64,000 nt of DNA from Bilabrum cf. latius (Eukaryota): NCBI GenBank assembly GCA_965178125.1, contig OZ237739.1, positions 558,001 through 622,000 of the forward strand, written 5' to 3'. The position numbers and the translations under genes are program-made. Shown here piece after piece: positions 1 to 57,869 of the stretch (the first letter of the stretch is position 1; each line of letters begins with the position of its first letter). The notes beneath the pieces were generated by a model. That model was not told where the DNA came from and searched no databases. It saw only the letters and a list, made by a program, of their open reading frames with translations.

Positions 1-3000
1 CTGAACTAGGTAGGCGAGCTAGCAGACGACATAACGCCAGACATGAATGCGATTCGGGTCAAGCTCGCATTGGCCCTGCGATTCGGAAGCGCCAAGATGC
101 CGTTTGGGACAGGTGGGGCCTACGGGAGTTATATGTCGGCGCACGGGCACGTCAGAGCGTCTTGCCGCCTCAGCCGCATCGAGCATTAGGCCGTGTGCGA
201 CATGCTTGACAACAAGGACATGTCAGAGAAGTGGCGAGCCCTCAGGTACGGTGACTCCATCCGGGCCACGTACTCCACCAATGGGGCTTCTGAGGGAAAT
301 TTCGGCTGGTATGGCACGATAGCAGAGGGGGGTCTTCACACCGCTGACTACATGTCATAGGCCCAAATACCGACAGAGACAAAATCTGCAAGTGGCTACG
401 TGTCTCTAACGTGGCCCGAGGACGGAAATCGCAACTGGTGCTTCAGTACGTATGGCTACGAGCCAATCGGGGATCTGAGCTCCAGTGCGAAAAAGTCAGT
501 CGATAAGATCAACAGCTTGCTTCCGCTGGCATGGAACTAGCACACGCCCTACCTCATCGAGCTTGCGTTGGGGAAGGCGCGCATTCGCCTTGTCGAAGGA
601 GGGGAAGAATGCGGCCGGCGATTCGCCCAAGTGCTCACGCGCTGGATGCAAGCGAAGCTGTTAGGTTGGAAACCGTACACGTTCTCCGGAAAACAGATGG
701 TGCCCTACTATATTGGTGCAATTGCCAGCGTGATTGATGCTGACGGTTCCCCTGCCACGGAGGGATCTAGCGGTGGCTGGCCGGTTCCTACTACGGAAAT
801 GCTAGCCAAGATCCAAACGTCATCGACTCAGACTTGGGTGAGGAGCTGGTTTCAAGCGCTGAAGGAATGCCCTACCTCTTCAAATCCGAGATTTGACAAA
901 TCGAAGTGGGCTGGCAAAGAAAATGAGATCCCTTGGGGCCACTTTCCCCCGATCCGGCTTGGCCTTGGCACGGGAGCGGATGACGGCACGGCGAACCCGC
1001 CGCAGGACATCACGTCGGACCTTCTGCCACCGGATCCGCCGGGCTGCTTCGACACGTGTCCAGATAGAGCCCTGGTTCTCCGCAAGTTTGACCACTCGGG
1101 TATAGCCACAGCCAGCGGTGCCGCCTCGGGATCGGGGAAGGGCCACGGGAGGCGGGGCTCTGTGAGCGGTGGCGGCGTGGGAATGGACGTGAGCGTGAGC
1201 AAGCTCGACCTGGCCCAATTCGCCACCATGCCGCTGGGTCTCCTGGCAGAGGAGCACACCTTGGTTCTGTCTGCTGCCCAGTCACAAGTGCGTGTGCCGT
1301 CTGGCAGTTTACCGTTCGACAAGACAACCGGACGTCCCATCGAGTCGTCTTTCGTTGCCGACGCCATGCTCAAGCGACTGGAGGACTCTTGTGCCACTTA
1401 CAAGGAGATTGTGGCTGGCCGGACTTCGGATGCGATGGCCTGCTTGGTGGTAGATGCCAACACGGACAAGCAGAGGCACCCGAAGCCAGAGGAGCTGTCT
1501 GCCATAGCGGGTCCGGCTATTGCTTCGCTTCAGCGGTTGCTGCAGCAGCTCGTCAAGCAGCGCCGCGAAGATCTCAAAGACGTCCGCAAAGGGTTTGCGT
1601 CTGTTTTGGCTGTGCTGAACAGGATTGAAGAAGTCGACACGAGCGATGACGCGCCGGCCGCCGCTGCATCTGGTGCGGGCAGCAGCGACCGACCGCCGCT
1701 GGTCGTAAAGACTAGCTTGGAGAGGCATGCCTTCCAGCGCACGTATGTGTGGGACGAGCTGTTGCTTGGCACGCTCCTAAGCTCAAGACCTGAATAGGAC
1801 TTGTTCAATCAGAACCCATGCATGTCGGCAGAACGAGCGAGAGCAGCCGTCGAGTGCGCGCATGCCTTGGCGCTCAAGGCCAACCGCGTGTCGCAGGCCA
1901 ACCGGTGCATTGGGCTAGCACAGCGACTGGCAGGAATGCTTGGGAAGATTCAAAGCTAGTTCAGCAATGCTGGTGCCCACTTTGGATCAGATGCTGTTTC
2001 TCCAGAGCAGATGGAGGCTCTTCGGTATGCACAAGAGGACCTCGCAGGATCGCTCCGCGGAGTCCGACCGTACGCCTCCATCTTCCCGAACGTCCCCATC
2101 GATTATCACAAGCTGGCAGAAGGCGCTGCGGATGCTCGTGAAGTGCAAGAAATATCCATGGATTCGCGGTTCCTGATGCTCGAGCTCATCAACGGCTGGC
2201 TGCTGCGTGGCGTACAGGTGGATGTGGTGGGTCGATTTTGCGAGGAGGCGTGCGTGCCCCTCTACGGACTTCCACCTTCCATGCAGTTCGGGCCCAACAC
2301 AGGACTCCCAGCGGATCAAATGTTTGCCAACAAGCCGGGATTTACGGGCTCGTCGTCCGAATCCAAGGGTGGCGAAGAAGAGAGCAAGGTGGAGCCGCCA
2401 GTGCCGGTTGACGATGACGGGGTGCCGGACCTCGCAGCTCTCGAGAAATACATCTCCTCGCTGGACCCATCTGGCTCCGGGGTCCAATCCCGAGTTCGGT
2501 CACTTGCTATGGGTGCCGGCAAGACGGCTTGCATCAGCGTTCTGCTCATTCTTGCAATGGCAGATGGGAAGCGCGTTGCCACGATCATGGCCCCCCCTGC
2601 CCTGCTCGCTCAGACCCAGGACCTAATGTGGGCCGCATTCGCCCGTATTATGCCAAAGCGGGTGGTGACTTTTAATTTCACACGGAGCTCCGCAGACAAT
2701 CCCAGCGAGCTGGCCGCCTTGCGACGAAAGCTAGAAGACACGGCAGAGCAGCGAGGTCTGGTGCTAACCTCACCAGGTGCAGTCAAGTCGATGCAGTTGC
2801 TCTTTGTGGAGCAGGCCGGCAAGGCGTTGGGCACAGACGGCAAGGGCTCTATCCGCTTGCTCTCGCAGGAAAGCCGCAAGCAGGCCATGGAGGCTGCCAA
2901 AGAGCTGGCCCAGATCACTGACATGTTTGGAAGGTCTCAGGGGGGTCGCCTGGTGATGGACGAGGTGGACATGATCCTAAGCCCGCTCAAGTCGGAGCTG

Positions 3001-6000
3001 CTGTATCCCGCTGGCAACACTGTAATGCTGTAGCCCAGGCCATATCGCTGGACATTCGTGGTGGATTTGCTGGAAACGATCACTACTGCTGCATTGCTCG
3101 AGGGCGCCGGCGACTCGAGGCGGTGCGCCCTGATAGCGGTGGACTCCGAGTCGGCTGGATCAGGAGCAGGCGAATCCAAGGGAGGAGACGAAGGCGGCGA
3201 CAAGGCTAGCTTGGCTGACGTGCAGAGCGGCCGGGGGCCCATGGGGCCGTTCCGCCGCGCGATCAGGCAGGGACTGGACCAGCAGATGCTGCAATCATCT
3301 CCTCACCTAGTGCTTTTGAATAAGGGCTTCTACCACCAGGTGCTTCGACCTGCCGCTGCCGAGTGGTCGGTGTGGTGGCTCATGAGCTCCAACGTGCTGC
3401 AGGCTAAGCAGAACGAAGAGCAGTCGAAAGCCACGGATTCGCCCGTCTCGGGCAAGGACCTCGAGTTGATCTTGCAGGCCGATCCAAAGACCACGGAGAA
3501 ACAGGCCAAGGCGTGCCTGCGCAAAGTGGCAGCCACCATCGGTCCGAAGAGCCAAGCTGCTCTCCGAATCGTGCTGGACTGGCTCAACAGCCTGCTGGCG
3601 CACGTGCTGGGCAAGGTCAACCGGGTTACGTACGGCATCCTGGGGCCGGGTGACGTGCAGCGCCTCCAGGCCATGGGCGGCGATGGCCTCGGCCGAGAGC
3701 GCCTGCTGACAGCTGTGCCTTTTGTTGGCAAGGATGTCCCCTCTGAGATGTCTTCCTTCGCCCAGCCCGACTGCCTCATCGGGATCACGACGAGCGCGTA
3801 CCTGTATGAGGGGCTCATGCCGAGGCACGTGAAGCGACTGGTGCAGGTCCAGCGTTTCAAGATGGGCCGAGAGTCGGGACCGCACCGCACCCGACCGTCG
3901 AGGATCGAGTTTCAAGGCTGGGTGGAGGACGCGATGCGGGTGTGGCGGGTGCGCTTCGGGGATGCCGCGGATGCCATCGCCCGGGCCAGGCAGGCCGCAG
4001 CCCGAAGCGGTGCTTCGTCTGCGTCCTTCATTCCCACGGCCGAGCAGCTGGACCTTTCTGAAGATGCATACAATGAGGCTGCTGCAGGACCCCCCATGGT
4101 TCCGCCGCTGGAGTTCTTGCAGACTACCGACGCGCCCCAGATGGCGCAGGTGTTCCGGCTGTTCCGGCTCTTTGGTCCCATGGTCCGCAGCTGGATGCTG
4201 ATGTACGTGTTTCCCACCGTGACGGACCACTAGGAGGCCAAGTTTTCCTCTTCTGGCGTGGACCTAGGGTCCGACTGCCTCTTTGGTGCCAGGTACGGCT
4301 TCTCGGGAACGCCCTCTGCCCTCGCTCCCCTGGACCTGGGCGAGTGCGACTTCGAGCCGGGTTCGGAGGGAAGGTTCCTCGACGTGCTGACGGACCCGCA
4401 AGTGGTGTGGGACTCCAGCGATGAGCTGATTCCCGGCCGCGAGTGGACCGTGCCAGGCCTGCTCAAGTCGATCGCCAACACCTCCCCGCCCTTCCATGCC
4501 CTCATCGACGCGGGCGCACTAATCACGGGCATGTCCAATCGCCAGGCAGCGGCGTACATGCTTCGCGTGGGCCTCAAGACGCTGCAGGGGTGCGTGTTCC
4601 TGGACGAAGACAACCAAAAGATGATTCTTGTGCGTGGCAAGTCAGAGGCCTTGCCGTTAGCCGAAGCCGGCATTCCTAAACATAAGCGTTTTACGATCTA
4701 TGACCAGAGCCACACGACGGGCATGGACATCAAGCAGGCTCCCAACGCTCGCGCCGTGCTCACGCTGGGCAAGGACTGCACATTTAGGGATGCTGCGCAG
4801 GCGGCCTGGCGCATGCGCGGTCTGGCGAAGGGGCAGACGCTCCGGCTTTGCGTGGTACCGGAGGTGCAAGGCCTTGTGAAGCAGGCTGTGGGCGCGGAGG
4901 CATTCGAAAAGGATCCGAGGATCCGATCGGTGGTGGCGTGGCTGGTTCGCAACAGCATCGAGCACGAGAGCTTGCAGTTCCAGCAGCTGTGCAGGCAGGA
5001 CCTTGCCAACGTCTGGAGGCGGGCCGCATTTGATGACCTGATGAGCATCTTTGGCATTGCGGGTCGGCAGTACGCCGAGAAAGGCTTGGTCCAGGATCTG
5101 CGAACCGTGCAGGAGCGAGTGAGCGTGTTCCGAGAGCCTGTCGACTTCACGCCAAAACTGGACCTCGAGGATGACCCGAGCGCTTCCGTCGGGGCTGCGG
5201 CTTCTTAGGGGGTCAGCAAGGATCCCGCGGAGAGCGCTCCGCTGGCAGGACTGGCGCGGTGGGCACGGGACACCATCCCGCAGTACATTCGTGGAGAGGC
5301 TGCCGAGAAGCGGCTGCTTGCCGTCCTGGAAAGAAACTCAATCGGAGCTGGTGTAGGAGGCAAGAAGAAGACGCAGCACCTGGACCAGGAGCAAGAACAA
5401 GAGCAAGAGGTGCTCCAGGAGGCCGAGCGGGAGCAGGACTAGGAAAAGGAGCTGGAGTACGTCGCCTGGTTCAAGCGCCCGGACATTGACGTGCGCAAGC
5501 CCAGCCCGTGGTCTATCGCTAGCCTAGAGAGTGCAAGCCGCAAGGTACAGAACTTTGCCGACAGCGGCGATGCGGTGAAGGCGCAGTCTGCTTTGCTCGG
5601 CGCTCTGGGGCAGGCAGCGTTTCACGCCTCTGAGTGGAAGCCGGACGATGACACGCCCATGCTATAGGCGCTGCGGCCGGGCCTGTGCCTTTCAAAATGG
5701 TTTACTCTGCAGGACGCGCAGAACCTGCCGGAGTACAAGGTGCAGTTCGCGCAGGTTGGCATGACCTTCAACGCCCTCGAGCCCGACCCACGAGGGGCAT
5801 CGGCTATGGCCGTGCAGGCTGGCGGTGGGGCCGCGGCAGCGGCGGGGTACAGGCCGGGAGGCGGTGCCATCGTGCCCGCTCTGTCTGGAGACTCGCAGCG
5901 CCGCATGGCTGGTGCTACTCCCATGGTCATCCTGTCGCTGGCCGAGGCAGAGGCGGTTCGTCGGGCGCTCCATGCGGCTAGTAGGGAGAGCGACGGCGGT

Positions 6001-6636
6001 CGGTCATCATCCTCGGGTGATGGGAAGCTGGCGGGCGTGCAGCTTTGGAACATTTCGCTTGGATAGCTGATCGATTCAGCGGGAGCTGGCGGCCCCTCGT
6101 CGTGTGGTGGAAAAGGGGGCGGCAAGTCGCGCGCAGAGGTGACGAGAGCACCGACTTGGGACGTACGTGTGGCCTTGGGGCGGTTTGCCAACTGCGACGT
6201 GTACATGCCAGATGAGTCTGCCACGGCGGCTCTCGTTCCACTTGCGGGCGTCCCAACGGACGACCGTCGCGTGTTCTTCGAGCGACTGGCGAGGCGCAGG
6301 AGGGGAGGTGCCACGGCCTGGGCGGGTACGCCGGTTGCCAAGCTGCTGACCGTCAAAGATCTGCAGTCTCTCAAGCATAGGGACGAGCAGGTTCAGAGGG
6401 TGCGGCAGGCACTGGCCAGCAAGGGCTGGGACCCCGATCGCCTATTCAAGGAGCTTGATGACGACCGATCTGGCACTTTGTCCGTGGCAGAGTTCCGAAA
6501 GCTGGTCAGCACGCTGAACCTGCCGCTGCCCGAGGGTGATGTGATGGATCTGTTGCACGCAGCGGATCGCGACATGGACGGGTTTGTCACGATGACCGAG
6601 TTCAGGCGAGCGTTTGCCGCTGTGGAGGACTCGTGA
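1..6636 (+). CDS. Giant DUF3638/DUF3645-type P-loop (SF2 helicase-like) protein with C-terminal EF-hand pair; 5'-partial, TAG=Gln
   Basis: Frame +1 is open from base 1 to TGA 6634-6636 except for 12 TAGs (7, 187, 358, 538, 1795, 1957, 3031, 4231, 5206, 5440, 5665, 6064). Motifs: Walker A-like AMGAGKT, MDEVD, AVPFVGKDVPS, YGFSGTPS, ALIDAGALITG, YDQSHTTGMDIKQ, QAAWRMRGL, EQEQEQE tract, EF-hands DDDRSGTLSVAE and DRDMDGFVTMTE. Confidence 0.85.
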
Positions 6637-8055: not shown

Positions 8056-8313
8056 TAAATTCCAACGCCCGGCGCGCCCGAGCTCGCTTCCGCTTCCCGG
8101 TCACGCAGAAGCACGAATGCTGGCAAAAGTCTCAGAGATTCATTGACATCAGCTGCACTCAATTTTCTTCAACTTCTTTAAGGCGCTGCAGTAGTGTTCA
8201 AGGGAACGGTCAAAGATTCGTAAGCTAGCGAGGCATACTGGTGCCAAACAGCTGCAGTTCTGGTATCAAAACCAGCACTTCGGGAGTCTGTAACTGCACA
8301 AGACTCATTCATC

Positions 8314-14300: not shown

Positions 14301-17300
14301 CACGGCGCCGTCCGACTTCGATGAGTCCGCTGGCACGGCCGTGGCGCTCTTCTCGGGCGTGTCCATCGAGGACGCGGACGACGTGCAGGTGACGGCCAGC
14401 GTCAGCATCCAGAGCTCGCAGACCGGTGACGCGCTGACCGCCGGGGCTGGCGTGAAGTTGGCAGAGGACGGGCTGAGCGCCACGGTGGCTGCATCATCGC
14501 TGGCCGACATGGCCACGGCGCTGGCCACGATCAAGTTCGCCAACACCGCCGACTACGTGACGCCGCTGACTCGCACTGTGCGGCTGACGGTGGAAGACCT
14601 GGGGTCGCAGGGCCAGCTGAGCAGCAGCAAGCAGGCTAGCAGCGAGAATGTGACCGTGACCATCGTGGCGGACAATGATGCGCCTGGCATCACGCTGGGC
14701 ACGGCGCCGTCCGACTTCGATGAGTCCGCTGGCACGGCCGTGGCGCTCTTCTCGGGCGTGTCCATCGAGGACGCGGACGACGTGCAGGTGACGGCCAGCG
14801 TCAGCATCCAGAGCTCGCAGACCGGTGACGCGCTGACCGCCGGGGCTGGCGTGAAGTTGGCAGGAGACGGGCTGAGCGCCACGGTGGCTGCATCATCGCT
14901 GGCCGACATGGCCACGGCGCTGGCCACGATCAAGTTCGCCAACACCGCCGACTACGTGACGCCGCTGACTCGCACTGTGCGGCTGACGGTGGAAGACCTG
15001 GGGTCGCAGGGCCAGCTGAGCAGCAGCAAGCAGGCTAGCAGCGAGAATGTGACCGTGACCATCGTGGCGGACAATGATGCGCCTGGCATCACGCTGGGCA
15101 CGGCGCCGTCCGACTTCGATGAGTCCGCTGGCACGGCCGTGGCGCTCTTCTCGGGCGTGTCCATCGAGGACGCGGACGACGTGCAGGTGACGGCCAGCGT
15201 CAGCATCCAGAGCTCGCAGACCGGTGACGCGCTGACCGCCGGGGCTGGCGTGGCGTTGGCAGGAGACGGGCTGAGCGCCACGGTGGCTGCATCATCGCTG
15301 GCCGACATGGCCACGGCGCTGGCCACGATCAAGTTCGCCAACACCGCCAACTACGTGACGCCGCTGACTCGCACTGTGCGGCTGACGGTGGAAGACCTGG
15401 GGTCGCAGGGCCAGCTGAGCAGCAGCAAGCAGGCTAGCAGCGAGAATGTGACCGTGACCATCGTGGCGGACAATGATGCGCCTGGCATCACGCTGGGCAC
15501 GGCGCCGTCCGACTTCGATGAGTCCGCTGGCACGGCCGTGGCGCTCTTCTCGGGCGTGTCCATCGAGGACGCGGACGACGTGCAGGTGACGGCCAGCGTC
15601 AGCATCCAGAGCTCGCAGACCGGTGACGCGCTGACCGCCGGGGCTGGCGTGAAGTTGGCAGGAGACGGGCTGAGCGCCACGGTGGCTGCATCATCGCTGG
15701 CCGACATGGCCACGGCGCTGGCCACGATCAAGTTCGCCAACACCGCCGACTACGTGACGCCGCTGACTCGCACTGTGCGGCTGACGGTGGAAGACCTGGG
15801 GTCGCAGGGCCAGCTGAGCAGCAGCAAGCAGGCTAGCAGCGAGAATGTGACCGTGACCATCGTGGCGGACAATGATGCGCCTGGCATCACGCTGGGCACG
15901 GCGCCGTCCGACTTCGATGAGTCCGCTGGCACGGCCGTGGCGCTCTTCTCGGGCGTGTCCATCGAGGACGCGGACGACGTGCAGGTGACGGCCAGCGTCA
16001 GCATCCAGAGCTCGCAGACCGGTGACGCGCTGACCGCCGGGGCTGGCGTGAAGTTGGCAGGAGACGGGCTGAGCGCCACGGTGGCTGCATCATCGCTGGC
16101 CGACATGGCCACGGCGCTGGCCACGATCAAGTTCGCCAACACCGCCGACTACGTGACGCCGCTGACTCGCACTGTGCGGCTGACGGTGGAAGACCTGGGG
16201 TCGCAGGGCCAGCTGAGCAGCAGCAAGCAGGCTAGCAGCAAGGATGTGACCGTGACCATCGTGGCGGACAATGATGCGCCTGGCATCACGCTGGACACGG
16301 CGCCGTCCGACTTCTATGAGTCCACTGGCACGGCCGTGGCGCTCTTCTCGGGCGTGTCCATCGAGGACGCGGACGACGTGCAGGTGACGGCCAGCGTCAG
16401 CATCCAGAGCTCGCAGACCGGTGACGCGCTGACCGCCGGGGCTGGCGTGAAGTTGGCAGGAGACGGGCTGAGCGCCACGGTGGCTGCATCATCGCTGGCC
16501 GACATGGCCACGGCGCTGGCCACGATCAAGTTCGCCAACACCGCCAACTACGTGACGCCGCTGACTCGCACTGTGCGGCTGACGGTGGAAGACCTGGGGT
16601 CGCAGGGCCAGCTGAGCAGCAGCAAGCAGGCTAGCAGCGAGAATGTGACCGTGACCATCGTGGCGGACAATGATGCGCCTGCCATCAGGCTGGGCACGGC
16701 GCCGTCCGACTTCTATGAGTCCACTGGCACGGCCGTGGCGCTCTTCTCGGGCGTGTCCATCGAGGACGCGGACGACGTGCAGGTGACGGCCAGCGTCAGC
16801 ATCCAGAGCTCGCAGACCGGTGACGCGCTGACCGCCGGGGCTGGCGTGAAGTTGGCAGAGGACGGGCTGAGCGCCACGGTGGCTGCATCATCGCTGGCCG
16901 ACATGGCCACGGCGCTGGCCACGATCAAGTTTTCGAACTCCGAGGAGCGTCCGTCGTTGGCTGGTCGCACTGTGCGGCTGACGGTGGAAGACCTGGGGTC
17001 GCAGGGCTAGTTGGAACCATAGAAGCTCAGTGATTCTGAATCGGTCACTGTTTCGGTGATTCCGGATAATGATGCTCCTGTAGTTTTTTTGCAGGCGCTG
17101 CTTATTGTATTTCAAGAGGCCCCTGGGTTGCCGGAGCCACTGTTTAGTGGCATTTCCCTGTCTGATGTGGATGACTCTGAGTTTTCTGCCACCGTTACCA
17201 TGACAAATGGGCAGACTGGTGACTCAATTGGAATTGCTTAGACGGACGCGGACGTAACGGTGGCTGCAGACGAGCAGTCAATCATTATCAGTAAAGTGTC

Positions 17301-24718: not shown

Positions 24719-24849
24719 CTCCCTGTGCTCTTGCTTTTTGCAACTCGACGTTTCCGTTTGGGAGCTCGAGGTTCCGCTTCACGGCGTGTTGCGCGGCGCC
24801 GTCACCCAGAACGGGGCGTGTTCTGCTCGCACTGCGTATCGTTTTGAGC

Positions 24850-26068: not shown

Positions 26069-26228
26069 TGTTGACCAGATTATGGTGGCCTTGCCTATTT
26101 GATGTTGCAATCTTGCAGCCATCGCCTTCGCCACCTGTCCGGTGTTGCTCCTCCTCCTCCTCGCCACCAGAATGTACGACTTTTTGTTTATTGTACAATT
26201 TGAGGCAACCAATTGGATTGAATAGCGC

Positions 26229-28843: not shown

Positions 28844-29631
28844 TCAAATGTCTTCCCATGGTTCGATTCGCACGAGAGGCAGCACAACCCTGAGCTGCTG
28901 CTTTGCGCTCACCCACTGCGCCTTTCCTTTGTCCTCCTGGACTGGGCGGGGCAAGAACGTACTCAGCTTGTGCTTGGGCGTGAGTATGAGGATTGTGTGC
29001 TTCTTGACATCCAGGTCGATATCTGCTGCGCTTTCTACCCCTGGAAGATCTACTTTCACGACCATTTCTTCACATTGTCTAGAGCCGGGGTCCTTCTCGC
29101 CTAGCCCCAAGTACACGTCTTCAGCACCAACTGCCTATCGATAGATGATTTCATACCTGTGTGCAATCTGGAAATCAATGAGTACTTCACATCACATGTT
29201 TGCTGGCTTTCCTGAAGGAGACACAAGTCGACAGGAACTCTCACTGTGGCTTCTCGCGTCCGCCTAAATCAGGATCAATCGTTTCGCCCTCTTTGTCAAT
29301 TTCACTATCATCCCAAATTTCTTTTGATTCCTTTGCTGTTCCAGATGGTACACTAGCTGAACCAGAGCTGCCTGAGCCGCTGGCAGCAGACTTTGTTGCC
29401 GTTGATGGCAAGCCAATGTCGGCTGGAGATGCGATCTTTTTGGCCTGATCGCCTTCAGATTTCTGTGCAAATGACTTATTTACTCAAATCCCGAACCTTT
29501 CGCATGGATATTGTTGTGCGGGCAATCTGCTGGCTCGAAGCCGCAAGCGGTACTCTCACGCGCCCTCCGCTTTCTTGAGGAACCTGGGCTAGCAAACTAG
29601 ACAGCGCTGCCATGTCCGGATTGAAAGACAT
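28844..29631 (-). CDS. DNAAF6: Dynein axonemal assembly factor 6 (PIH1D3); introns 29463-29559 and 29157-29244
   Basis: Spliced product contains SPADIG, KEIWDDSEI and REKPQYEIIYR(Q)AVGAEDVYLGLGEKDPGSRQCEEMVVKVDLPG..IDLDV..KLSTFLPRPVQEDKGKAQW. Both introns are GTGAGA..CAG and restore the frame. TAG at 29135-29137; ends TGA. Confidence 0.88.
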
Positions 29632-29761
29632 ATTTGTCAAATTCCTCGAAGCAATAGTTTTCTCGCTGATCGGATGATTGCCGGTGAGAGAGTTTTTTCG
29701 AACCGAAAATGGATCGGAGCAGCACAGTCAACGATGCACTCTCACGCACACTGCAATACGC

Positions 29762-32700
29762 ATGCGATATCTCGATGGGCTTCTCGCTGCAGCGCTCTGT
29801 TTTACGGTTTACTCATCGTCGGTTGATAGAAAGGCCGTGATCCACAGGCATAGCCCCAACATCGTGGACCCAACTGATGTCGGCGGCTCAGTTGCAGTTG
29901 GGAACGGCTTCTTTGCGACACACACCGGGTGCACCGGGTCGTAGTCAGCGAATCAGACTCTCAATCAATATTTTGGAGTCCAAACTATGTCGGAATGGGC
30001 CTTTCATGCAATTCCGTACGAATCCAGTGGAAGACCGTTGGACTCAGCAAACTCGTGGGAAGTGAGAGCACTATGCAGTGTATTTTGAAGCTCTTAACAT
30101 TTACGAGATGCAACCATGTCCTTCATCAACACTTGATTTTGCAGGACGATGTCGATTCGTATACCGGAAAGGTCATCCCGTCGTTTACTAACCTCACTGG
30201 CAGCGAGCACAGCTGGGTCTACACAAACCCCGTGCGATACGACTTGGGCTAGTTTGCTGTTGCTGTCGTTCACGTTGGCTAGGACGGCTCCTTCTCCGGT
30301 TCCTCGTCCTCCCCCGACTCGCCCACAGCCCCGATCCAGTCATAGGATATCGTTGGCTGCCGTTCTTCGCTGGACCTGTGGAGCGGGGTGCAGCACTCGC
30401 TGTACAATGCATCCGCGGGAAGCGATGACGGGCGGGTGCTTGGCTCCGACGGCCAGGTCGCAGGCGGCGGGTTCATGGTGGAGGCCTGGACGGCGGTGCA
30501 CCCAGACGGCGACATCGTGTCGCATCGCATGCAGGTGCAGGGGCCCGCCCCCGCCGGAGATGCCGCCCCTGCGGCGGTGCCGGTGCTGGTGCCTCGCCTG
30601 GCTTTCGCATACCCCACCGGACAGCCTTCAGCCAGAGACTGGACGCCGGGAACGGGCAAAAACCACGAGACACGCGTGATGGCGAACGAATCCACTGGTG
30701 GATTCGCCACGGTCCTGCTGCAGCGCACCATCGACAACTCCACGTCCTACCGCGTCAGGTGCAATGCCACATGGCCCGCTGGGACCGTTGGTGCTGGTGG
30801 TGGTGGATGCAGCGCATGGCAGTGGGCCCGTGACCCGCGGCTCGACCACACGCTGCTGCTGGTGCCCGCTGGCTGCGCGGGTGCAGTATTCCCGCATGCC
30901 AGATCACATGGCTCGTCTCGCTTCGCTGAGGGCTACGGTGTGAGCGTGTCGTGCGGCTTTGCGCCTGTGGATCGACGGTCGGGGCGAGTGGAATACCTGG
31001 CGTACCCGCCCGTGCTTCGCGATGCAGAGGTGGTGCGGGCGCGGCAGTCGGTGATGTCTCGAGTGATGGGCGAGGGCGAGAGCTCGAGCAGCAGTGTGGT
31101 GTCGTTGGGCTCTGAGCTTCCGTCCGCGATGGCGGTGGAGGCAGCATCGGCATCGGCCTGGTCTTCGTTCTGGAGCAGCGGCGCAGCCGTGGATCTGCAG
31201 TCGGGACTGACCGAGAGTGCAGGCGGCGATGGCGCGGCGCATGAGCTGGAGAGGCGCGTGGTGCTGTCGTAGTATGCAAGCCGGGCGCTGGAGACCGGCG
31301 CGTTTCCCCCGTGTGAGTCAGGCCTGGTCCGCAACTCAGGTTGGAACGGAAAGTCCCACCTGGAGATGCGTTGGTTCCATCAGGGACACCAGCCCGCCTG
31401 GGGCCGTGCGCACCTGATCCGGGACAGGTCTGACCTGTGGTACCACGCCATCATGCGGAACGCATCATCGTACGCGAGGTACTAGGGCTACAACGGCTCG
31501 AGCATCCCCCACACCGACGTGCTGCCGGGCACGGCCACTCGCTGGCCCAAGCAGGTCGGGCTGATCGGGCCCACTGGGGACGAGAACGACCCATTCAACG
31601 GCGTGGCGTGGGCCGGCATTCCAGTACCTGGGTGGGTGGACCAGAGCACCGGTCTGGTGGAGATCACAGCTCCTAATCACATCGGACCTCGCTTGATCTG
31701 GCAGCAGCCGCACGTGTTTTGGTACGCGGAGCAGGAGCGTCTTGCGTGCATGGGCAACGCGACGTGTGAGGCCGATGTGTGCCAGTGGTGGAAGGAGCCG
31801 CTGCTATAGACGGCATCGTTCTTGGTGCAGCTGCTGGTGAGCCGGGGCGATGGGATGCATCTAGATCCGCCCCTGATTGGCGGCGAGGAGCAGGTGAGCG
31901 CACGTGAAGTTGTGATCTATCATCGCGTGTATGTGTATGAATGTGGTGTGCTTACTGCTGTGCGTCTGGTTGTCAATCTGTGTGCCATTGCCCCTTTTCG
32001 ACTGACTCGACCCCGTAGGGCAACAACTTTTCCCGCACGGTGGACCCCACATTCGAACTGGCCTACGTGCGGTGGGCCCTGGACCTGACGCAGGACTGGC
32101 TGCAGGACGATGGCAAGTGGGGCATGGGCGCATCCGAGGCCATCACACGGGCGCAGGGACGACTGGCTGCTTTGCCTGTGGGCCGGCTGGGCCGTACGTC
32201 CGCCGACGTGCAGCAGGAGCTGGACGGGTGGATGACGGCAGTTGCACCCACGGCGGCGCGCGGGGTGCGGGAGCGGCTGCTGACCAGCATGAGATCGACG
32301 CCTGGAGGTGTTTGGTCCGGCGGCACGCAGGACAAGCAGGTGTATACTTTCAACGCGGCGTGCAACTGCACCTTCTAGCTGCACAAGGCAGCCGGAGACT
32401 CATGTCCACCGTCCACATCGCATCCACTCTTCGTGGGTGCCTTTGGAGTGTTCGCGGGCCGGCAAGGCGCGCCGGGGAGCGCAGGCGCGGGCCTGGATGT
32501 GGATTTGATGAACGACACTGTGGCGGCTACGGCGGCGCTGTGGGACTGGAACTGCACGCGCGGGGATGTGTGGGGCTGGGATGCCGCTTGGCTTGCGCAG
32601 TCAATGGCTCGTCTGGGCTGGCACCCTGAAGCTGTGGCAGAGATGCTTCTGCTTCCGGCAAAGCACAACGGATTTGCAGCATACAACGGGTACAACACGG

Positions 32701-32876
32701 GCGGCGAGGGGGCGCTGGCAGCATACTTGCCTGGGAACGGCGGGCTGCTGCACACGGTGGCGCTACTGGCGAATCAGGGTGGGAGTGGGGGCTTGCCGTG
32801 GGGCGGGGTGGGCGAGGGCTTCCCGCCGTACGTGTCAACTGCACGTGCGAAGGTGACATCTGCTGGCCGAGAATGA
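29762..32876 (+). CDS. Secreted six-hairpin (alpha/alpha)6 glycoside hydrolase-like protein, copy 1; introns 30062-30144 and 31894-32018
   Basis: Signal peptide; VDRKAVIHRH..VAVGNG..TGS(Q); NPVRYDLG(Q); ELERRVVLS(Q)Y; WNGKSHLEMRWFH..WGR; ARY(Q)GY..RWPK; LIWQQPH; PTFELAY; WGWD; YLPGNGGLL. 8 coding TAGs; ends TGA. Confidence 0.8.
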
Positions 32877-35800
32877 TTTGACTATCTTTGTTCTGCTCGG
32901 TGTACAAGTGATTTTGATTGTCACCGGACTGTTCATTCGCTGCAGCATCGATCCTGCCGCCGCAATCCTGCTGGCGAACCGGTGGCATACCATAGCCTCG
33001 TCCACCTGCCGGTCGGTAGAGCGTGCGACTGTTAATCGCAAAGTCGTGGGTTCGATCCCCACCGGAACCGACTGCCAACATTTTTTTTCTTTGCCGAGCT
33101 AGCCAGCCCCAACGCACACGCTCTTGCCACTTAAGAGCACGCTTTTGGGGGTTTACATTGTCATCACAACGCCATCACAGACCATTGATTTACTGCTGAT
33201 ACGCACCGATGCACAGCAAACTTGTCCCATATTGCATGGGATGGGCGCGCATTCGCCCCCGGGGCATAGCGACAGCTCCGGCCCACCCCAGGCGTCCGAC
33301 CCGAAATGCAGCCGACCCGACCGATCGGAGGTACCTGACCGAGATGAAGCCCTCCGGGCGAACAATGTCTACAGCCACACTTTGTGTACCATGCAGCACA
33401 TCCTGTATGTACCCCACACCTACCCATTCCGCGAACAGCCCGATTGGAACACACCCACCAGACCATCAGGCCCACTCGTTCGTGGAGTCGCCCGTGATAC
33501 TCTTAAAGCAATGCATGGCCACTTGGGTGGGCTGGGGTGCGAAGGCCGGCGCCCGATTGCACGCATTGAGATTACGCTTTGCATGCAGCCGGTCGCGTGA
33601 CGGCCAGCCAACAACCCATCCTTGCCCCTCCCCGTTGCAGCACCCATTGTCTGCCACGACATGCGCGGCGTACGATACACATGTGGGGGAGTGGTGGGTG
33701 AAGTAGCTGGATATCAAGCCGCCCTTTTGATGCATAAGGCACAAGAACTCTTTCTTCTGTCTCAGTCGCGACCAGCTGGCTGCATTAGCTGGAGGGCAGC
33801 GAGACGTACGGCGGGAAGCCCTCGCCCACCCCGCCCCACGGCAAGCCCCCACTCCCACCCTGACTCGCCAGCAGCGCCACCGTGTGCAGCAGCCCGCCGT
33901 TCCCAGGCAAGTATGCTGCCAGCGCCCCCTCGCCGCCCGTGTTGTACCCGTTGTATGCTGCAAATCCGTTGTGCTTTGCCGGAAGCAGAAGCATCTCTGC
34001 CACAGCTTCAGGGTGCCAGCCCAGACGAGCCATCGACTGTGCAAGCCAAGCGGCATCCCAGCCCCACACATCCCCGCGCGTGCAGTTCCAGTCCCACAGC
34101 GCCGCCGTAGCCGCCACAGTGTCGTTCATCAAATCCACATCCAGGCCCGCGCCTGCGCTCCCCGGCGCGCCTTGCCTGCCCGCGAACACTCCAAAGGCAC
34201 CCACGAAGAGTGGATGCGATGTGGACGGTGGACATGAGTCTCCGGCTGCCTTGTGCAGCTAGAAGGTGCAGTTGCACGCCGCGTTGAAAGTATACACCTG
34301 CTTGTCCTGCGTGCCGCCGGACCAAACACCTCCAGGCGTCGATCCCATGCTGGTCAGCAGCCGCTCCCGCACCCCGCGCGCCGCCGTGGGTGCAACTGCC
34401 GTCATCCACCCGTCCAGCTCCTGCTGCACATCGGCGGACGTACGGCCCAGCCGGCCCACAGGCAAAGCAGCCAGTCGTCCCTGCGCCCGTGTGATGGCCT
34501 CGGATGCGCCCATGCCCCACTTGCCATCGTCCTGCAGCCAGTCCTGCGTCAGGTCCAGGGCCCACCGCACGTAGGCCAGTTCGAATGTGGGGTCCACCGT
34601 GCGGGAAAAGTTGTTGCCCTGCGGGGTCGAGTCAGTCGAAAAGGGGCAATAGCACACAGATTGACAACCGGACGCACAGCAGTAAGCACACCACATTCAT
34701 ACACATACACGCGATGATAGATCACAACTTCACGCGCGCTCACCTGCTCCTCGCCGCCAATCAGGGGCGGATCTAGATGCATCCCATCGCCCCGGCTCAC
34801 CAGCAGCTGCACCAAGAACGATGCCGTCTATAGCAGCGGCTCCTTCCACCACTGGCACACATCGGCCTCACACGTCGCGTTGCCCATGCACGCAAGACGC
34901 TCCTGCTCCGCGTACCAAAACACGTGCGGCTGCTGCCAGATCAGGCGAGGTCCGATGGGGCTGGGAGCTGTGATCTCCACCAGACGGGTGCTCTGGTCCA
35001 CCCACCCGGGTACTGGAATGCCGGCCCACGCCACGCCGTTGAATGGGTCGTTCTCGTCCCCAGTGGGCCCGATCAGCCCGACCTGCTTGGGCCAGCGAGT
35101 GGCCGTGCCGGGCAGCACGTCGTTTTGGGGGATGCTCGAGCCGTTGTACCCCTAGTACCTCGCGTACGATGATGCGTTCCGCATGATGGCGTGGTACCAC
35201 AGGTCAGACCTGTCCCGGATCAGGTGCGCACGGCCCCAGGCGGGCTGGTGTCCCTGATGGAACCAACGCATCTCTAGGTGGCCTTTGCCGTGCCACGGGT
35301 CATTGCGCACCAAGGCAGACTCCCCCGGCGGTGACATGCCGGTTTCCAGCGCCCGGCTTGCATACTACGACAGCACCACGCGCCTCTCCAGCTCATGCGC
35401 CGCGCCATCGCCGCCTGCACACTCGGCCAGTCCCGGCTGCAGATCCACGGCTGCGCCGCTGCTCCAGAACGAAGACCAGGCCGATGCCGATGCTGCCTCC
35501 ACCGCCATCGCGGACGGAAGCTCAGAGCCCAACGACACCACGCCGCTGCTCGAGCTCTCGCCCTCGCCCATCACTCGAGACATCACCGACTGCCGCGCCC
35601 GCACCACCTCTGCATCGCGAAGCACGGGCGGGTACGCCAGGTATTCCACTCGCCCCGACCGTCGATCCACAGGCGCAAAGCCGCACGACACGCTCACACC
35701 GTAGCCCTCAGCGAAGCGAGACGAGCCATGCGATCTGGCATGCGGTAAGACTGCACCCGCGCAGCCAGCGGGCACCAGCAGCAGCGTGTGGTCGAGCCGC

Positions 35801-36390
35801 GGGTCACGGGCCCACTGCCATGCGCTGCATCCACCACCAGCAGCACCAACGGTCCCAGCGGGCCATGTGGCATTGCACCTGACGCGGTAGGACGTGGAGT
35901 TGTCGATAGTGCGCTGCAGCAGGACCGTGGCGAATCCACCAGTGGATTCGTTCGCCACCACGCGAGTTTCGTGGCCCTTGGGAGTCCAGTCCCGCATGGT
36001 CGGCTCGCTACTGGGGTATGCGAAAGCCAGGCGAGGCACCAGCACCGGCACCGCCGCAGGGGCGGCATCTCCGGCGGGGGCGGGCCCCTGCACCTCCATG
36101 CGATGCGACACGATGTCGCCGTCTGGGTGCACCGCCGTCCAGGCCTCCACCATGAACCCGCCGCCTGCGACCTGGCCGTCGGAGCCAAGCACCCGCCCGT
36201 CATCGCTTCCCGCGGATGCATTGTACAGCGAGTGCTGCACCCCGCTCCACAGGTCCAGCGAAGACCGGCAGCCAACGATATCCTGTGACTGGATCGGGGC
36301 TGTGGGCGAGTCGGGGGAGGAAGAGGAACCCGAGAAGGAGCCATCCTAGCCGACGTGAACGACAGCAACAGCAAACTAGCCCAAGTCGTA
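30238..36390. repeat. Large inverted duplication: arms ~30238-32833 and ~33804-36390, spacer ~970 bp
   Basis: The arms are near-identical reverse complements, including the second intron. The ORF track shows mirrored translations. Confidence 0.95.
33012..33070 (+). pseudogene. 5'-truncated tRNA-Asn(GTT)
   Basis: gtcggtagagc-g-tgcga-ctGTTaa-tcgca-aagtc-gtggg-ttcgatc-cccac-cggaaccg followed by a T8 run. The 5' acceptor strand and 5' D-stem strand (ggttccgtagctca) are absent. Confidence 0.8.
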
Positions 36391-36876
36391 TTGTACTGGG
36401 TTAGTATGCAACCACTTTTGCTGAGTAGACGTCTCGTTCGTAAACGACGGGATCGTCTCTCCAGTGTACAAGTCAATATCATGCTGCCAGAGCAAAGGGT
36501 CAGGATAGTGAAGCATTGCTATGCATACTAACAAAACCAATATATGCACTGGAAATCAATGGGGCGCATCGGCAGATGGTCTTACCTCCCAGAGGTACGG
36601 ATTTCGGAAAGGAGATTCCCCTCTCGGTTGAGGTGGGATAGCATGGGATGCCCATTCCGCCTTGCTGTACGCACCAAAGTACGTGTCTAGACTCCCGTTC
36701 ATCGATTGAGCCCCTGTACAACCCGAGTGTGCCGCGAACATACCGTTGCCAACTGCAACTGAGCCGCCGACATCTCTTGGATCGGTGATCAATGGATTGT
36801 GCCTAGAAACAACGGCCTATCGGTCAATGGCTGCTGCTGTAGCTACACATAGGATGATGGCAATCCTGCCGCTCAT
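33785..36876 (-). CDS. Secreted six-hairpin glycoside hydrolase-like protein, copy 2; introns 36484-36585 and ~34619-34743
   Basis: Paralogue of 29762-32876 with its own signal peptide MSGRIAIILCVATAAA. Same motifs and intron positions; 7 coding TAGs; ends TAA 33785-33787. Confidence 0.8.
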
Positions 36877-36998
36877 TTTTTCTGAGGCTGATTTATTGAA
36901 GGCAATTAAGCGGGCACACGGTATGGCCTAGGGCCCGGATTCCGGATTCCGGGATTCAGCAGCGCCGCGTGCCCAAGGTCTTGTGGGCCAAGGCGTGC

Positions 36999-37184
36999 CC
37001 TGGGAACGGCGGGCTGCTGCACACGGTGGCGCTGCTGGCGAGTGGGGGTGGCAGTGGGGGCTTGCTTGCCTTGGGGCGGGGTGGGCGAGGGCTTCCCGCC
37101 GAACGTGTCAACTGCCCTCCAGCCAATGCAGCCAGCTGGTCGCGACTGAGACAGAAGCAAGAGTTCCTGTGCCTTATGCATCAA
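36999..37184 (+). pseudogene. Third, frameshifted fragment of the glycosidase 3' end plus copy-2 3' flank
   Basis: Encodes PGNGGLLHTVALLAS, then carries a 4-nt insertion (ggcttgcttgcc). It is the reverse complement of ~33727-33907. Confidence 0.85.
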
Positions 37185-37571
37185 CTTGCGCTATCAGCCT
37201 CAATTCAAGGGCGGCACGATCGCCAGCTACTTCACAGGGACGGGAGGCCATGCAGCGACGAGGCCAGTCGACGCGCATTGGAAAAGTGGTGCGTACATTT
37301 GTAGTATCAGAGGTATACCGCGTTCAGGTGGGCTGGTGAAGAACAAGTCGTTCGGGGTAAATTAATTAAGTTCCGGGGGCAGACGACCGTCCGATGGGCT
37401 ATGTATGTATGTGTGGTCTTCTTTCCTGACAAATTCTCAATATATTAGCCACAGGAGCTCCAGTACCACAACATTCTTCCATTGAGACAGCGCAGACAAA
37501 AAACATCGTCAGTTAGCTAGGCCGCAAGCGAAGGAATTGAGAAGCGGTCAGTTGGATCCAAAAAAGGTTGA

Positions 37572-37644
37572 CGGTTCCGGTGGGTCTCGATCCCACGACC
37601 TCGCGATTAACAGTCGCACGCTCTTCCAGTTGAGCTACGGAACC
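37572..37644 (-). tRNA. trnN: tRNA-Asn(GTT)
   Basis: Full cloverleaf: acceptor GGTTCCG/CGGAACC, D-stem GCTC/GAGC, anticodon arm TGCGA-CTGTTAA-TCGCG, T-arm GTGGG-ATCGAGA-CCCAC. A downstream T6 Pol III terminator is present. Confidence 0.93.
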
Positions 37645-38016
37645 ACTTGACCAAAGCCCCTAATTAAGAAATACAATCAGATGCATAAATAATCATAGTT
37701 TCGATTAAAGCATTTTTTCTCCAAAGCGCGCCGTTCATCCACGTGCAAAATCATTTTATCCGCCGGTTCGGTGCAAGCGGCATTACTGAATTTATCCATT
37801 CAAAGTCAAGGGTGAGATCAGTGCAGTTTCTGGTGAACGATGGCACTGCTATCTCGGGTAGATGCTCTCGGCGCGACACCCGTTGGCGCATCCAGCCAGC
37901 GATCACCGTGCATGTTGTGCAATTCGCACTGTACCCGAGCTGGTGCGATAATATCTAGTGACTGATTATTTAATAATCAGAAGCAGTTCTTGGCATCGCA
38001 GCGAGTACGACACAGC

Positions 38017-43608: not shown

Positions 43609-43941
43609 TCCGGTAGTCACGGCAGCCCACCCACAGCCGCCTTGCTGTTGCTCCGTCGCTGCGGCGTGAATTCGCGCGCGGGGCTTTAGCCTATGATTGT
43701 TCGCAAAGAGTCTGAACTGTTGCTACCTGTCCTGGTCCCGCGGCCAGCCCCTCCTGTCTGCCAGTTTGGACGGGTCCGTCCGCCTGTGGCACGCCTCCAT
43801 GGGGCAAATCCTCCACAAGATCCGCCGGTATGGATGCCGGTGTCGTGCGGAACCGGAACCGCCGCGGCGCCGCCTGCCCTGGCGGCCAAAGTTACACCAC
43901 TCTTGCTGTGGCAAGTTGCACTGCTGTCCACCGCAGTGGTG

Positions 43942-57741: not shown

Positions 57742-57869
57742 AACTGCCTGAATGCAACAAGAACCGTCGAAACGAATTGCGATTTCCAGATTCCGAGTGC
57801 CACAATTGATATTGCACCAAAAAATAAAAAGCTCTGCCATAGAATCAATACTCCATAACGATCAGACAA

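Follow-up and report, generated by a model that had tools for sequence, protein, structure and literature searches.

UAG as a probable glutamine codon, with UGA and apparently UAA kept as terminators, in a GC-rich eukaryotic nuclear genome

The window, as the whole stretch of 64,000 nucleotides analyzed here is called, very probably is nuclear DNA of a eukaryote that has a high GC content, densely packed genes, and few introns and whose UAG has changed from a stop to a glutamine codon, with UGA and apparently UAA still acting as terminators (NCBI table 15 type). The role of TAG as a Gln sense codon is supported because TAG falls on invariant Gln columns, exchanges with CAG and CAA, occurs 114 times in frame without an internal TAA or TGA, and is retained in spliced contigs. 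Nuclear code changes are rare, and codes that give UAG and UAA different meanings are rarer still.

Gene content and in-frame TAG codons

When TAG is read as sense, the window is covered by 11 long genes that contain 114 in-frame TAG and no internal TAA or TGA in 18,370 codons. Nine stop-to-stop open reading frames (ORFs) of 747 to 4,510 aa together have 16,446 codons, 99 of them TAG, and terminate at TGA (seven) or TAA (two), and the out-of-frame triplets of the same DNA comprise 206 TAG, 66 TAA, and 682 TGA in 32,874. Pfam domains are found above threshold in six of the nine (leishmanolysin, ABC_membrane and ABC_tran, DUF3638/DUF3645, TPR/CLU, zf-MYND, and beta-helix). The first line below is the DUF3638/DUF3645/EF-hand gene, and the eight further ORFs are open only with TAG as sense; the count of 99 TAG includes the ORF at 1-6636.

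1..6636, + strand: DUF3638/DUF3645/EF-hand gene, 5′ end truncated at the window edge, 12 in-frame TAG
8224-21756, + strand: long ORF
21842-24778, − strand: long ORF
26103-28766, + strand: long ORF
38173-43608, + strand: long ORF
44023-46266, + strand: long ORF
46799-52174, + strand: long ORF
52348-57861, − strand: long ORF
57870-62867, − strand: long ORF

The DNA is gene-dense and intron-poor, with a GC content of 55 to 76%. TAG makes up about one codon in 160 and about 12% of the Gln codons in the window genes. The CLU/TPR gene alone carries 20 in-frame TAG; no homologs of it were found at E ≤ 1e-10, and it thus provides no column evidence. Within the 64-kb window, the only tRNA genes are a tRNA-Asn(GTT) and its truncated duplicate, and an eRF1 gene is absent.

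TAG exchanges and conserved glutamine positions

Two paralogous genes, titled glycosidases in an earlier note on this DNA, lie in inverted orientation. Their three-exon models were built from tblastn of the homologs P0003 and P0004 combined with frame reading.

29762..32876, + strand: GH65-like copy 1, exons 29762-30061, 30145-31893, and 32019-32876, stop TGA, 968 aa
29942, 30250, 30280, 30343, 31270, 31483, 31807, 32376, + strand: in-frame TAGs of copy 1
33785..36876, − strand: GH65-like copy 2, exons 36876-36586, 36483-34744, and 34618-33785, stop TAA, 954 aa
36819, 36378, 36348, 35367, 35154, 34830, 34261, − strand: in-frame TAGs of copy 2

Copy 1 may have a fourth exon or a frameshift at its 3′ end. 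The duplication is inverted, and the arm at 30206-32836 is mirrored by 33801-36422. The three inverted-repeat arms are 93 to 98% identical, and identity climbs from 93% in the 5′ part to 98% in the 3′ part (96.5% over 2,616 nt). Between the copies, pN/pS stands at 0.32 where they are similar (37 codon differences are synonymous and 33 non-synonymous) and at 0.37 across the diverged N-terminal region, values which indicate that both copies are under purifying selection.

As to the glycosidase label, neither the window exons nor their homologs give a Pfam or NCBIfam hit above threshold; the best GH65 hits are those of the bacterial homologs P0007 and P0008 (E 0.015-0.03, 14-15 bits where the cut-off is 27), and the PDB holds no sequence match for the protein. 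The predicted model of the bacterial homolog P0004, which is 37% identical to the window’s exon 2 (A4), takes on an N-terminal β-sandwich followed by a helical barrel, as in the GH65/clan GH-L fold (β-sandwich and (α/α)6 barrel). In a Foldseek search with this model, the top match is 7fe3_A (E 2.9e-23, TM 0.65/0.73), and GH65 phosphorylases and GH95 fucosidases come next. The entry 7fe3 is the GH65 α-1,2-glucosidase of Flavobacterium johnsoniae, and the likeness runs via the model of P0004, not via the window’s own protein. The name GH65-like is taken solely from this predicted fold similarity of a bacterial homolog, below family thresholds.

For the comparison of the copies, 29100-33300 was globally aligned with the reverse complement of 33301-37500, and the three-exon models were then aligned by codon. 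Nine of the 969 columns contain TAG; six are common to both copies and three are unshared.

30250/36378, 30280/36348, 31270/35367, 31483/35154, 31807/34830, 32376/34261: TAGs common to copy 1 (+)/copy 2 (−)
30343..30345 (+) and 36285-36283 (−): copy 1 TAG facing copy 2 CAG, identical flanks
29942..29944 (+) and 36708-36706 (−): copy 1 TAG facing copy 2 CAA
36817..36819 (−) and 29831 (+): copy 2 TAG facing copy 1 AAG (Lys)

The alignment reproduces the sites described in the earlier note. The TAG at 30343-30345 faces CAG at 36283-36285 in identical context (copy 1 CCGATCCAGTCA TAG GATATC, copy 2 CCGATCCAGTCA CAG GATATC). The exchange described as TGS-TAG against TGA-CAA was found again at 29942 (ACC GGG TCG TAG in copy 1, ACA GGG GCT CAA in copy 2), and so was the discordant N-terminal site, IDR*AV in copy 2 and VDRKAV in copy 1, at which TAG 36819 meets AAG 29831 (ATT GAC CGA TAG GCC GTT and GTT GAT AGA AAG GCC GTG). 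The statement that several TAGs are common to both copies holds for the six listed above. The pair had also been put forward as an internal control for the code, for which it is too small, with three exchanges of which one is to AAG. By codon frequency, CAG is expected to make up 21 to 33% of the one-step neighbors of TAG, and taken alone, the three paralog exchanges are statistically weak.

Further exchanges come from a tandem repeat and from an ortholog. The leishmanolysin-like gene contains 16 units of 399 nt, and the same codon position differs in a single unit:

17008..17010, + strand: TAG in the 16th unit, CAG at the same codon in 15 of the 15 other units

The ortholog lies on an environmental metagenome contig (L001; 5,956 nt, GC 58.5%), which consists of one open frame of 1,985 codons with 10 TAG, no TAA, and no TGA. 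Aligned with codons 1-1526 of the DUF3638/DUF3645/EF-hand gene, it yields 1,526 codon pairs at 73% amino acid identity. TAG is involved in 18 pairs, in which it faces CAG (six), CAA (three), GAG (two), and AAG, AAC, AAT, TCT, AGC, GCT, and GCC (one each). The probability of at least nine CAR in 18 at a background of 4.2% is 1.4e-8, and in conserved context CAR accounts for eight of 11 pairs. For comparison, the partner of a canonical Gln codon is itself Gln in 70 of 96 pairs with CAG and in 17 of 32 with CAA. When the paralogs, the tandem repeat, and the ortholog are pooled, CAR is the partner in 12 of 23 exchanges and AAG in two, one from the paralogs and one from the ortholog. The exchanges are not spread evenly over the one-step neighbors of TAG: CAG accounts for eight of the 12 one-step exchanges, with none to TTG, TCG, TGG, or TAY (P = 0.019 with transitions weighted twofold).

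Among six glycosidase homologs, TAG 29942 coincides with the Q in TGLQ(T/S)(F/L), a motif that has Gln there in all six, and TAG 31270 (35367 in copy 2) on the invariant Gln of RRVVLSQY/F (column Q448), again with Q in six of six. At TAG 31483 (35154 in copy 2), five homologs have Q and one has R. The remaining columns are mixed: TAG 30250 faces R in four and Q in two of the six homologs, TAG 31807 faces E in five and D in one, and the column of TAG 36819 is variable (S, A, E, K, K, R). In the ABCC transporter, three of the eight TAGs lie in columns that are occupied in at least 80% of 110 homologs; Gln makes up 0.9%, 4.4%, and 5.5% at these, against a mean of 21.5% at 46 canonical Gln columns. 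The ABCC TAGs occupy variable or inserted positions, both in these columns and in PDB alignments to MRP1. Distant DUF3638 homologs have Gln at none of seven TAG sites in P0131 and none of seven in P0133. TAG codons thus often appear to sit at unconserved positions.

Spliced contigs and alternative readings

Contigs from the runs X5, X6, and X7 are joined exactly at predicted GT..AG introns. The joint of copy 1 intron 1 (30061>30145, GT..AG) is present in an X5 contig, and the copy 2 joints 36483>36586 and 34617>34743 (CT..AC on the + strand) are present in X5/X6 contigs. The contigs of the three runs cover the TAGs at 29942, 30250, 36819, 34261, 34830, 31483, and 31807 with unaltered codons. 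Two of these are covered by spliced X5 records, 29942 by record 9 and 36819 by record 14, with no other letter at either site. Within the covered parts, the spliced contigs remove just the two predicted introns. Among the contigs listed, the bin 30341-30587, which holds TAG 30343, has almost no cover in any run, and in the DNA-like run X2 no intron joints were seen. The label “RNA?” of X5, X6, and X7 is a guess, X5 being marked “probably DNA,” and no listed run is on record as RNA. With the library type guessed in this way, the spliced contigs, which represent the TAG-bearing copies, indicate that the TAG-bearing genes are expressed and that UAG is kept in the mature mRNA.

It is extremely improbable that the TAGs are true premature stops, arising from decaying pseudogenes or assembly errors, or that they are removed by unrecognized introns or U-to-C RNA editing. 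Nonsense mutations from CAG to TAG are common and recent duplicates often decay; yet six TAGs are common to both copies, which stay under purifying selection, the frames of all 11 genes hold TAG as their sole internal stop triplet, and the same pattern recurs in the independent relative on L001. Independent runs match the sequence at ≥99%, and the T is kept at the covered TAGs, where no introns beyond the two predicted ones are dropped. A sense codon for another amino acid, for example Glu, Lys, Leu, Tyr, or Ser, is very improbable. The E/D column at TAG 31807 fits such a reading, as do the two ortholog exchanges with GAG and the two pooled exchanges with AAG. Gln, however, is the only residue that recurs (at the two invariant sites and in five of six homologs at the third), CAR is the partner in nine of 18 ortholog pairs against at most two of 18 for any other residue, and exchanges with TTG/CTN, TAY, or TCG do not occur. 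TAG as a synonymous Gln codon, as proposed in the earlier note, is supported by the homolog columns, the pooled exchanges, the integrity of the frames, and the spliced contigs.

If TAG is Gln, the remaining alternatives concern its relation to termination and to TAA. TAA and TAG could both encode Gln (NCBI table 6), with TAA merely very rare at high GC and the TAA “stops” read through to the next TGA. This is by far the commonest variant according to the accessible parts of PMC5304391 and PMC11687900, TAA is scarce all over the window (296 TAA and 865 TAG on both strands), and L001 alone is compatible with it (2.8 TAA expected, P(0) = 0.06). It is nevertheless quite unlikely: in the window genes and L001 together, no in-frame TAA stands against 124 TAG, when about 34 TAA are expected at the CAA/CAG ratio. 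Three of the 11 genes (CLU, g3, and copy 2) end at TAA, and reading TAA as sense merges no two long ORFs and only lengthens the ORF ends. The stretches from TAA to the next TGA contain further TAA and have a lower GC3 (0.57 vs 0.69; 0.46 vs 0.53). UAA is thus apparently a terminator and not a sense codon. A dual use, with UAG as sense inside genes and also as terminator near gene ends, is quite unlikely. It is favored by a TAG 0 to 21 codons before the ORF-ending TGA or TAA in four of 11 genes (per-gene chance 0.144, P(≥4/11) = 0.06) and by the tandem TAG-TGA at 52169-52174 in the ABCC gene. However, this enrichment is marginal, and the other seven genes have 113 to 447 codons between the last TAG and the stop; the closest ABCC relatives also have their C-termini in the same region, which fits either reading. 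In the accessible text of PMC11687900, no dual use is found in phyllopharyngean ciliates with UAG-to-Gln.

Known code variants, placement, and implications

Nuclear codes in which UAG alone encodes Gln are reported in the accessible parts of PMC5304391 and PMC11687900 for four lineages, one of fornicates and three of ciliates. These are the fornicate Iotanema spirale and the ciliates Protocruzia tuzeti, H. sinica, and T. petrani, and the window resembles them in that UAG would be a Gln sense codon while UAA and UGA terminate. In Iotanema, UAG provides about 8% of Gln codons (PMC5304391, accessible text), a minority codon as in the window (about 12%). The known cases, with their reported suppressor tRNAs, comprise an anaerobic metamonad and ciliates, whereas the window is GC-rich, gene-dense, and intron-poor, with Cafeteria as its nearest named relative in two genes. 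UAR-to-Gln codes (table 6) occur in many ciliates, ulvophycean green algae, hexamitin diplomonads, the oxymonad Streblomastix, and the aphelid Amoeboaphelidium protococcarum. They share with the window the change of UAG from stop to Gln and UGA as the main terminator, and differ in that UAA also encodes Gln there, a codon that is absent in frame here and ends three of 11 genes. In the ambiguous codes of Condylostoma, Parduczia, and karyorelict ciliates, and for UAR in Blastocrithidia, a standard stop is translated inside genes, as here. There, that codon is a terminator as well, close to the 3′ end, while all 11 ORFs of the window end at TGA or TAA, with the marginal near-end excess of TAG given above.

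The nearest named relatives are Cafeteria, Bigelowiella, and Entosiphon, and in two genes the nearest is the bicosoecid stramenopile Cafeteria. The ABCC tree groups the query with Cafeteria at a support of 1.0, a placement weakened by ABCC paralogy. An origin from aphelids, which include the UAR-to-Gln lineage Amoeboaphelidium, is disfavored, as neither the ABCC tree nor the named DUF3638 relatives give an aphelid or fungal affinity.

In the proposed explanation, TAG would be a third, minor Gln codon that replaces CAG and CAA, and is replaced by them, as synonymous codons are. Such drift would account for the six TAGs that the GH65-like copies have in common and for their TAG/CAG and TAG/CAA differences. 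By analogy with other UAG-to-Gln lineages, UAG would be decoded by a tRNA-Gln(CUA) that reads UAG and not UAA, and eRF1 would no longer recognize UAG. The high GC content makes TAA rare and CAG abundant, which, given a CUA tRNA, favors drift from CAG to TAG.

A bolder and rather doubtful proposal is that this UAG-only-to-Gln code is of independent origin and undescribed, belongs to a heterotroph with high GC and few introns that is allied to bicosoecid stramenopiles, would be the first variant nuclear code of stramenopiles, is common to at least two lineages, and may leave UAG some terminator function at gene ends. A literature search, conducted mostly outside the subscription journals, found no nuclear UAG reassignment in a stramenopile or bicosoecid.

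If this genome or related metagenome contigs are annotated with the standard code, genes are split at TAG, and nearly every long gene is affected because about one codon in 160 is TAG. In a public protein collection, the gene of the L001 relative is present as separate pieces of 557, 158, and 139 aa. If the code is indeed common to at least two lineages, the window organism and that of L001, with 27% protein divergence between them, its age would suffice to define a clade. A further UAG-only case in an unrelated, GC-rich lineage would provide an independent data point on the capture of UAG.

The GH65-like paralogues and their TAG codons

It is close to certain that TAG encodes glutamine (Gln) in the window organism. 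The earlier note drew this inference from TAG swaps between the two glycosidase paralogues; the pair alone is an anecdote, and the inference is now supported by evidence around it. Copy 1 and copy 2 are an inverted duplication with 96.5% identity across 2,616 nt (blastn). Single long ORFs seen with TAG as Gln cover only part of the genes, and the gene models were built from tblastn with homologues, frame reading, and coordinate mapping. Both copies have three exons, GT..AG introns, and a signal-peptide-like N-terminus.

Gene models and repeat arms (repeat search) of the inverted duplication
29762-30061, 30145-31893, 32019-32876, + strand: exons of copy 1, stop TGA, 968 aa
36876-36586, 36483-34744, 34618-33785, - strand: exons of copy 2, stop TAA, 954 aa
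30206-30647/35981-36422, inverted: repeat arm, 93% identity
30663-31334/35303-35974, inverted: repeat arm, 96% identity
31342-32836/33801-35295, inverted: repeat arm, 98% identity

In copy 1 (32815-32880), the annotated frame past GFPP closes with ...YVSTARAKVTSAGRE-TGA. The +1 frame gives ...VRVNCTCEGDICWPRMI-TGA, an ending similar to the W-x-V-x-x-E-G-L tail seen in the homologues, and the duplication boundary at 32836 falls inside this stretch. This leaves the true 3' end of both copies uncertain, with a frameshift or a short unrecognised intron as candidates. Copy 2 is preceded by a tRNA-Asn(GTT) gene (37570-37645, - strand), and about 140 nt downstream of copy 1 there is a truncated tRNA-Asn-like copy (33010-33070, + strand, Rfam 30 bits). 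A 186-nt fragment at 36999-37184 (+ strand) is 93-96% like the 3' tail of copy 2. Apparently the tRNA-flanked segment took part in the duplication more than once. One contig from the public run X7 carries copy-2 letters at 31488, 31512, 31514, and 31527 within copy-1 context, which are exactly the differences between the copies at codons 31486, 31510, 31513, and 31525. The mosaic suggests that the inverted copies have undergone gene conversion in another strain, or that the assembly is chimeric; ongoing conversion would also be compatible with the rise in identity from 93% (5') to 98% (3').

The window protein has no above-threshold match in Pfam, NCBIfam, or by PDB sequence, and GH65 matches stay below threshold in two bacterial homologues. 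The AlphaFold model of homologue P0004 (alignment A4; mean pLDDT 72.5, pTM 0.77) best matches the GH65 alpha-1,2-glucosidase 7fe3_A (E 2.9e-23), followed by GH65 phosphorylases and GH95 fucosidases. On this predicted structure, the “glycosidase” label is justified at fold level only, via the homologue. All homologues found are bacterial or metagenomic, and the window copies combine spliceosomal introns with a signal-peptide-like N-terminus and several insertions rich in Gly, Ser, and Ala; the gene may have reached the eukaryote by an old transfer from bacteria.

Global alignment of 29100-33300 with the reverse complement of 33301-37500 reproduces the swaps described in the earlier note. TAG 30343-30345 of copy 1 faces CAG 36285-36283 of copy 2 with identical flanks, TAG 29942 (ACC GGG TCG TAG) faces CAA 36708 (ACA GGG GCT CAA), and TAG 36819 of copy 2 (IDR*AV) faces AAG 29831 of copy 1 (VDRKAV). 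These CAG, CAA, and AAG codons are the three unshared partners among the nine TAG-containing columns of the 969-column codon alignment; the other six are TAG/TAG. When TAG is treated as Gln, pN/pS is 0.32 from column 136 to the end (S = 640, N = 1,829; 37 synonymous and 33 nonsynonymous codon differences) and 0.37 in the first 135, diverged, columns. Therefore, purifying selection acts, on average, on both copies across their TAGs.

Six homologues with 26-37% identity, all metagenomic or bacterial and one named glycoside hydrolase family 65 of Massilia, were compared at the TAG sites. The only residue recurring at conserved TAG columns is Gln.

Homologue residues at glycosidase TAGs
29942: Q of TGLQ(T/S)(F/L) in 6/6; window exon aligned directly to two
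31270: invariant Q of RRVVLSQ(Y/F), 6/6
31483: Q in 5/6, R in 1/6
30250: R in 4/6, Q in 2/6
31807: E in 5/6, D in 1/6
36819: variable column (S, A, E, K, K, R)
30280 and 30343: within an insertion or poorly aligned stretch
32376: beyond the aligned segments

Eleven public runs contain the stretch, none recorded as RNA, and four were compared. The library type of X5, X6, and X7 is a guess (“RNA?”), with X5 marked “probably DNA”. Three contig joints coincide exactly with homology-predicted introns, and two more contigs (one in X6, one in X7) join the end of copy 1 exon 2 to exon 3 as mapped on copy 2. None of these splice joints occurs in X2, a deep, DNA-like run.

Contig joints and spliced contigs spanning TAGs
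30061>30145: skips 83 nt, GT..AG
36483>36586: skips 102 nt
34617>34743: skips 125 nt, CT..AC on the + strand
Record 9: TAGs 29942 and 30250, no other letters
Record 14: TAG 36819, no other letters
Record 12: TAGs 34261 and 34830
Record 16: TAG 31807
Record 25: TAGs 31483 and 31807, six other letters, all outside these codons

Both copies therefore have processed transcripts, with U kept at the spanned TAGs, the run type being guessed. TAG 30343 lies in a bin with almost no listed contig cover, and the transcript evidence comes from other TAGs. The TAGs could alternatively mark silent pseudogenes, lie in hidden introns, or be removed by U-to-C editing; the spliced contigs with U kept at TAGs oppose all three.

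TAG across the window and in an environmental orthologue

When TAG is read as sense, the window is tiled by very long ORFs, nine besides the two glycosidase copies; the longest standard-code frames fall far short of these.

Long ORFs with TAG as sense
1-6636, + strand
8224-21756, + strand: 4,510-aa leishmanolysin-like protein (Peptidase_M8) with C-terminal teneurin-type EGF domains
21842-24778, - strand
26103-28766, + strand
38173-43608, + strand: 1,811-aa Ala/Glu/Arg-rich coiled coil
44023-46266, + strand
46799-52174, + strand
52348-57861, - strand
57870-62867, - strand

Six of the nine carry above-threshold Pfam domains (DUF3638/DUF3645/EF-hand; leishmanolysin and EGF; zf-MYND; beta-helix; ABCC-type transporter; TPR/CLU). 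Their 16,446 in-frame codons include 99 TAG, 559 CAG, and 155 CAA with no internal TAA or TGA; TGA closes seven of the ORFs and TAA the other two. The 32,874 out-of-frame triplets of this DNA include 206 TAG, 66 TAA, and 682 TGA. Thus, TAG is not depleted in frame, and in-frame TGA and TAA are absent. Within 38000-44000, the coiled-coil ORF is 72-76% GC with a very marked asymmetry between the strands (GC skew up to 0.26, AT skew 0.33), and the long antisense ORFs there are composition artefacts.

Within the leishmanolysin-like gene, a 133-aa unit is repeated 16 times in tandem; one codon is TAG (17008) in the last unit and CAG in the 15 others, and a second TAG of the last unit (17020) faces AGC. 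The near-identical 399-nt units lie at 10684-17067 (+ strand) and are followed by more diverged units; of the 16, only the last contains TAGs.

A HMMER search of the full library, with codons 1-1200 of the DUF3638 gene as query, returned pieces of 557, 158, and 139 aa (67-81% identity), all from one 5,956-nt metagenome contig, L001. Such pieces are the product expected when a standard-code gene caller meets in-frame TAGs. A piece from a near-identical source stops at residue 598, directly ahead of the window's TAG 599. L001 (58.5% GC) has a single frame open end to end with TAG as sense, with ten TAG and no TAA or TGA in 1,985 codons.

The earlier note proposed tabulating the codons that exchange with TAG, and on this one orthologue pair CAG or CAA account for 9/18 partners, against a 4.2% background (P = 1.4e-8). 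The codon alignment holds 1,526 pairs (73% amino-acid identity), 18 with TAG on one side and none TAG/TAG; the partners are CAG (6), CAA (3), GAG (2), and AAG, AAC, AAT, TCT, AGC, GCT, and GCC (1 each). In well-conserved context (at least 8/11 surrounding residues identical), CAG/CAA make up 8/11 partners; for comparison, canonical CAG lies opposite Gln in 70/96 pairs and CAA in 17/32. Paralogues, repeat, and orthologue together supply 23 exchanges, of which 12 involve CAG or CAA. The 12 one-step exchanges are with CAG (8), AAG (2), and GAG (2), and none is with TTG, TCG, TGG, TAC, or TAT, codons that together account for 37% of the codon mass one step from TAG (P = 0.0009 unweighted, 0.019 when transitions count double).

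Some comparisons are uninformative or count against Gln. In a 110-homologue alignment of the ABCC transporter, three of eight TAGs fall in well-occupied columns with 0.9-5.5% Gln, versus 21.5% at 46 canonical Gln columns. The DUF3638 homologues P0131 and P0133 have Gln at 0/7 TAG sites each, and P0132 has Q at one. A homologue search for the CLU gene found none.

Type of code and lineage

In-frame TAA is absent from 18,370 window and 1,985 L001 codons, versus 124 TAG; about 34 would be expected from the CAA/CAG ratio. Reading TAA also as sense merges no two long ORFs and only extends ORF ends, and TAA ends 3/11 genes. Two genes, g3 and CLU, have lower GC3 and a further TAA between their TAA and the next TGA. 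From the missing in-frame TAA, the lack of mergers, and the TAA gene ends, the code looks UAG-only to Gln, and UAA is likely retained as a stop.

A TAG stands 0-21 codons ahead of the ORF-ending stop in 4/11 genes (P = 0.06), a hint that UAG may retain a residual terminator role at gene ends, with chance as the alternative; the closest ABCC relatives, compared at the gene end, fit both readings of the terminal UAG. The ABCC gene ends in tandem TAG-TGA (52169-52174), and ORFs 21842-24778, 26103-28766, and 52348-57861 have a TAG 12-21 codons before the stop.

Spliceosomal introns and domain architectures of eukaryote type mark the window as eukaryotic; its genes are densely packed with few introns, and its GC content is 55-76%. 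For the DUF3638 gene, the closest named relative comes from Cafeteria roenbergensis, with further named matches in Bigelowiella and Entosiphon. A FastTree phylogeny of 111 ABCC sequences groups the window protein with Cafeteria and two metagenome proteins as a four-member clade (support 1.0). This sequence evidence, from a paralogue-rich ABCC family and a window without a marker gene, favours a bicosoecid-like stramenopile over an aphelid or ciliate.

According to passages in two papers (PMC5304391, PMC11687900), the commonest nuclear variant is UAR (UAG + UAA) to Gln; UAG-only to Gln is known in Iotanema spirale, Protocruzia tuzeti, H. sinica, and T. petrani; and a tRNA with anticodon CUA decodes UAG, not UAA, as demonstrated in Tetrahymena. 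By analogy with these codes, UAG would be decoded here by a tRNA with anticodon CUA, without UAA reading. No nuclear UAG reassignment in stramenopiles or bicosoecids was found in the literature searched, most subscription journals being outside its scope; a published description may exist elsewhere, the matching runs dating from 2025. The variant code is of a known kind, in a lineage that may be new for it. Environmental relatives of the window organism are being mis-annotated in the public protein collection.
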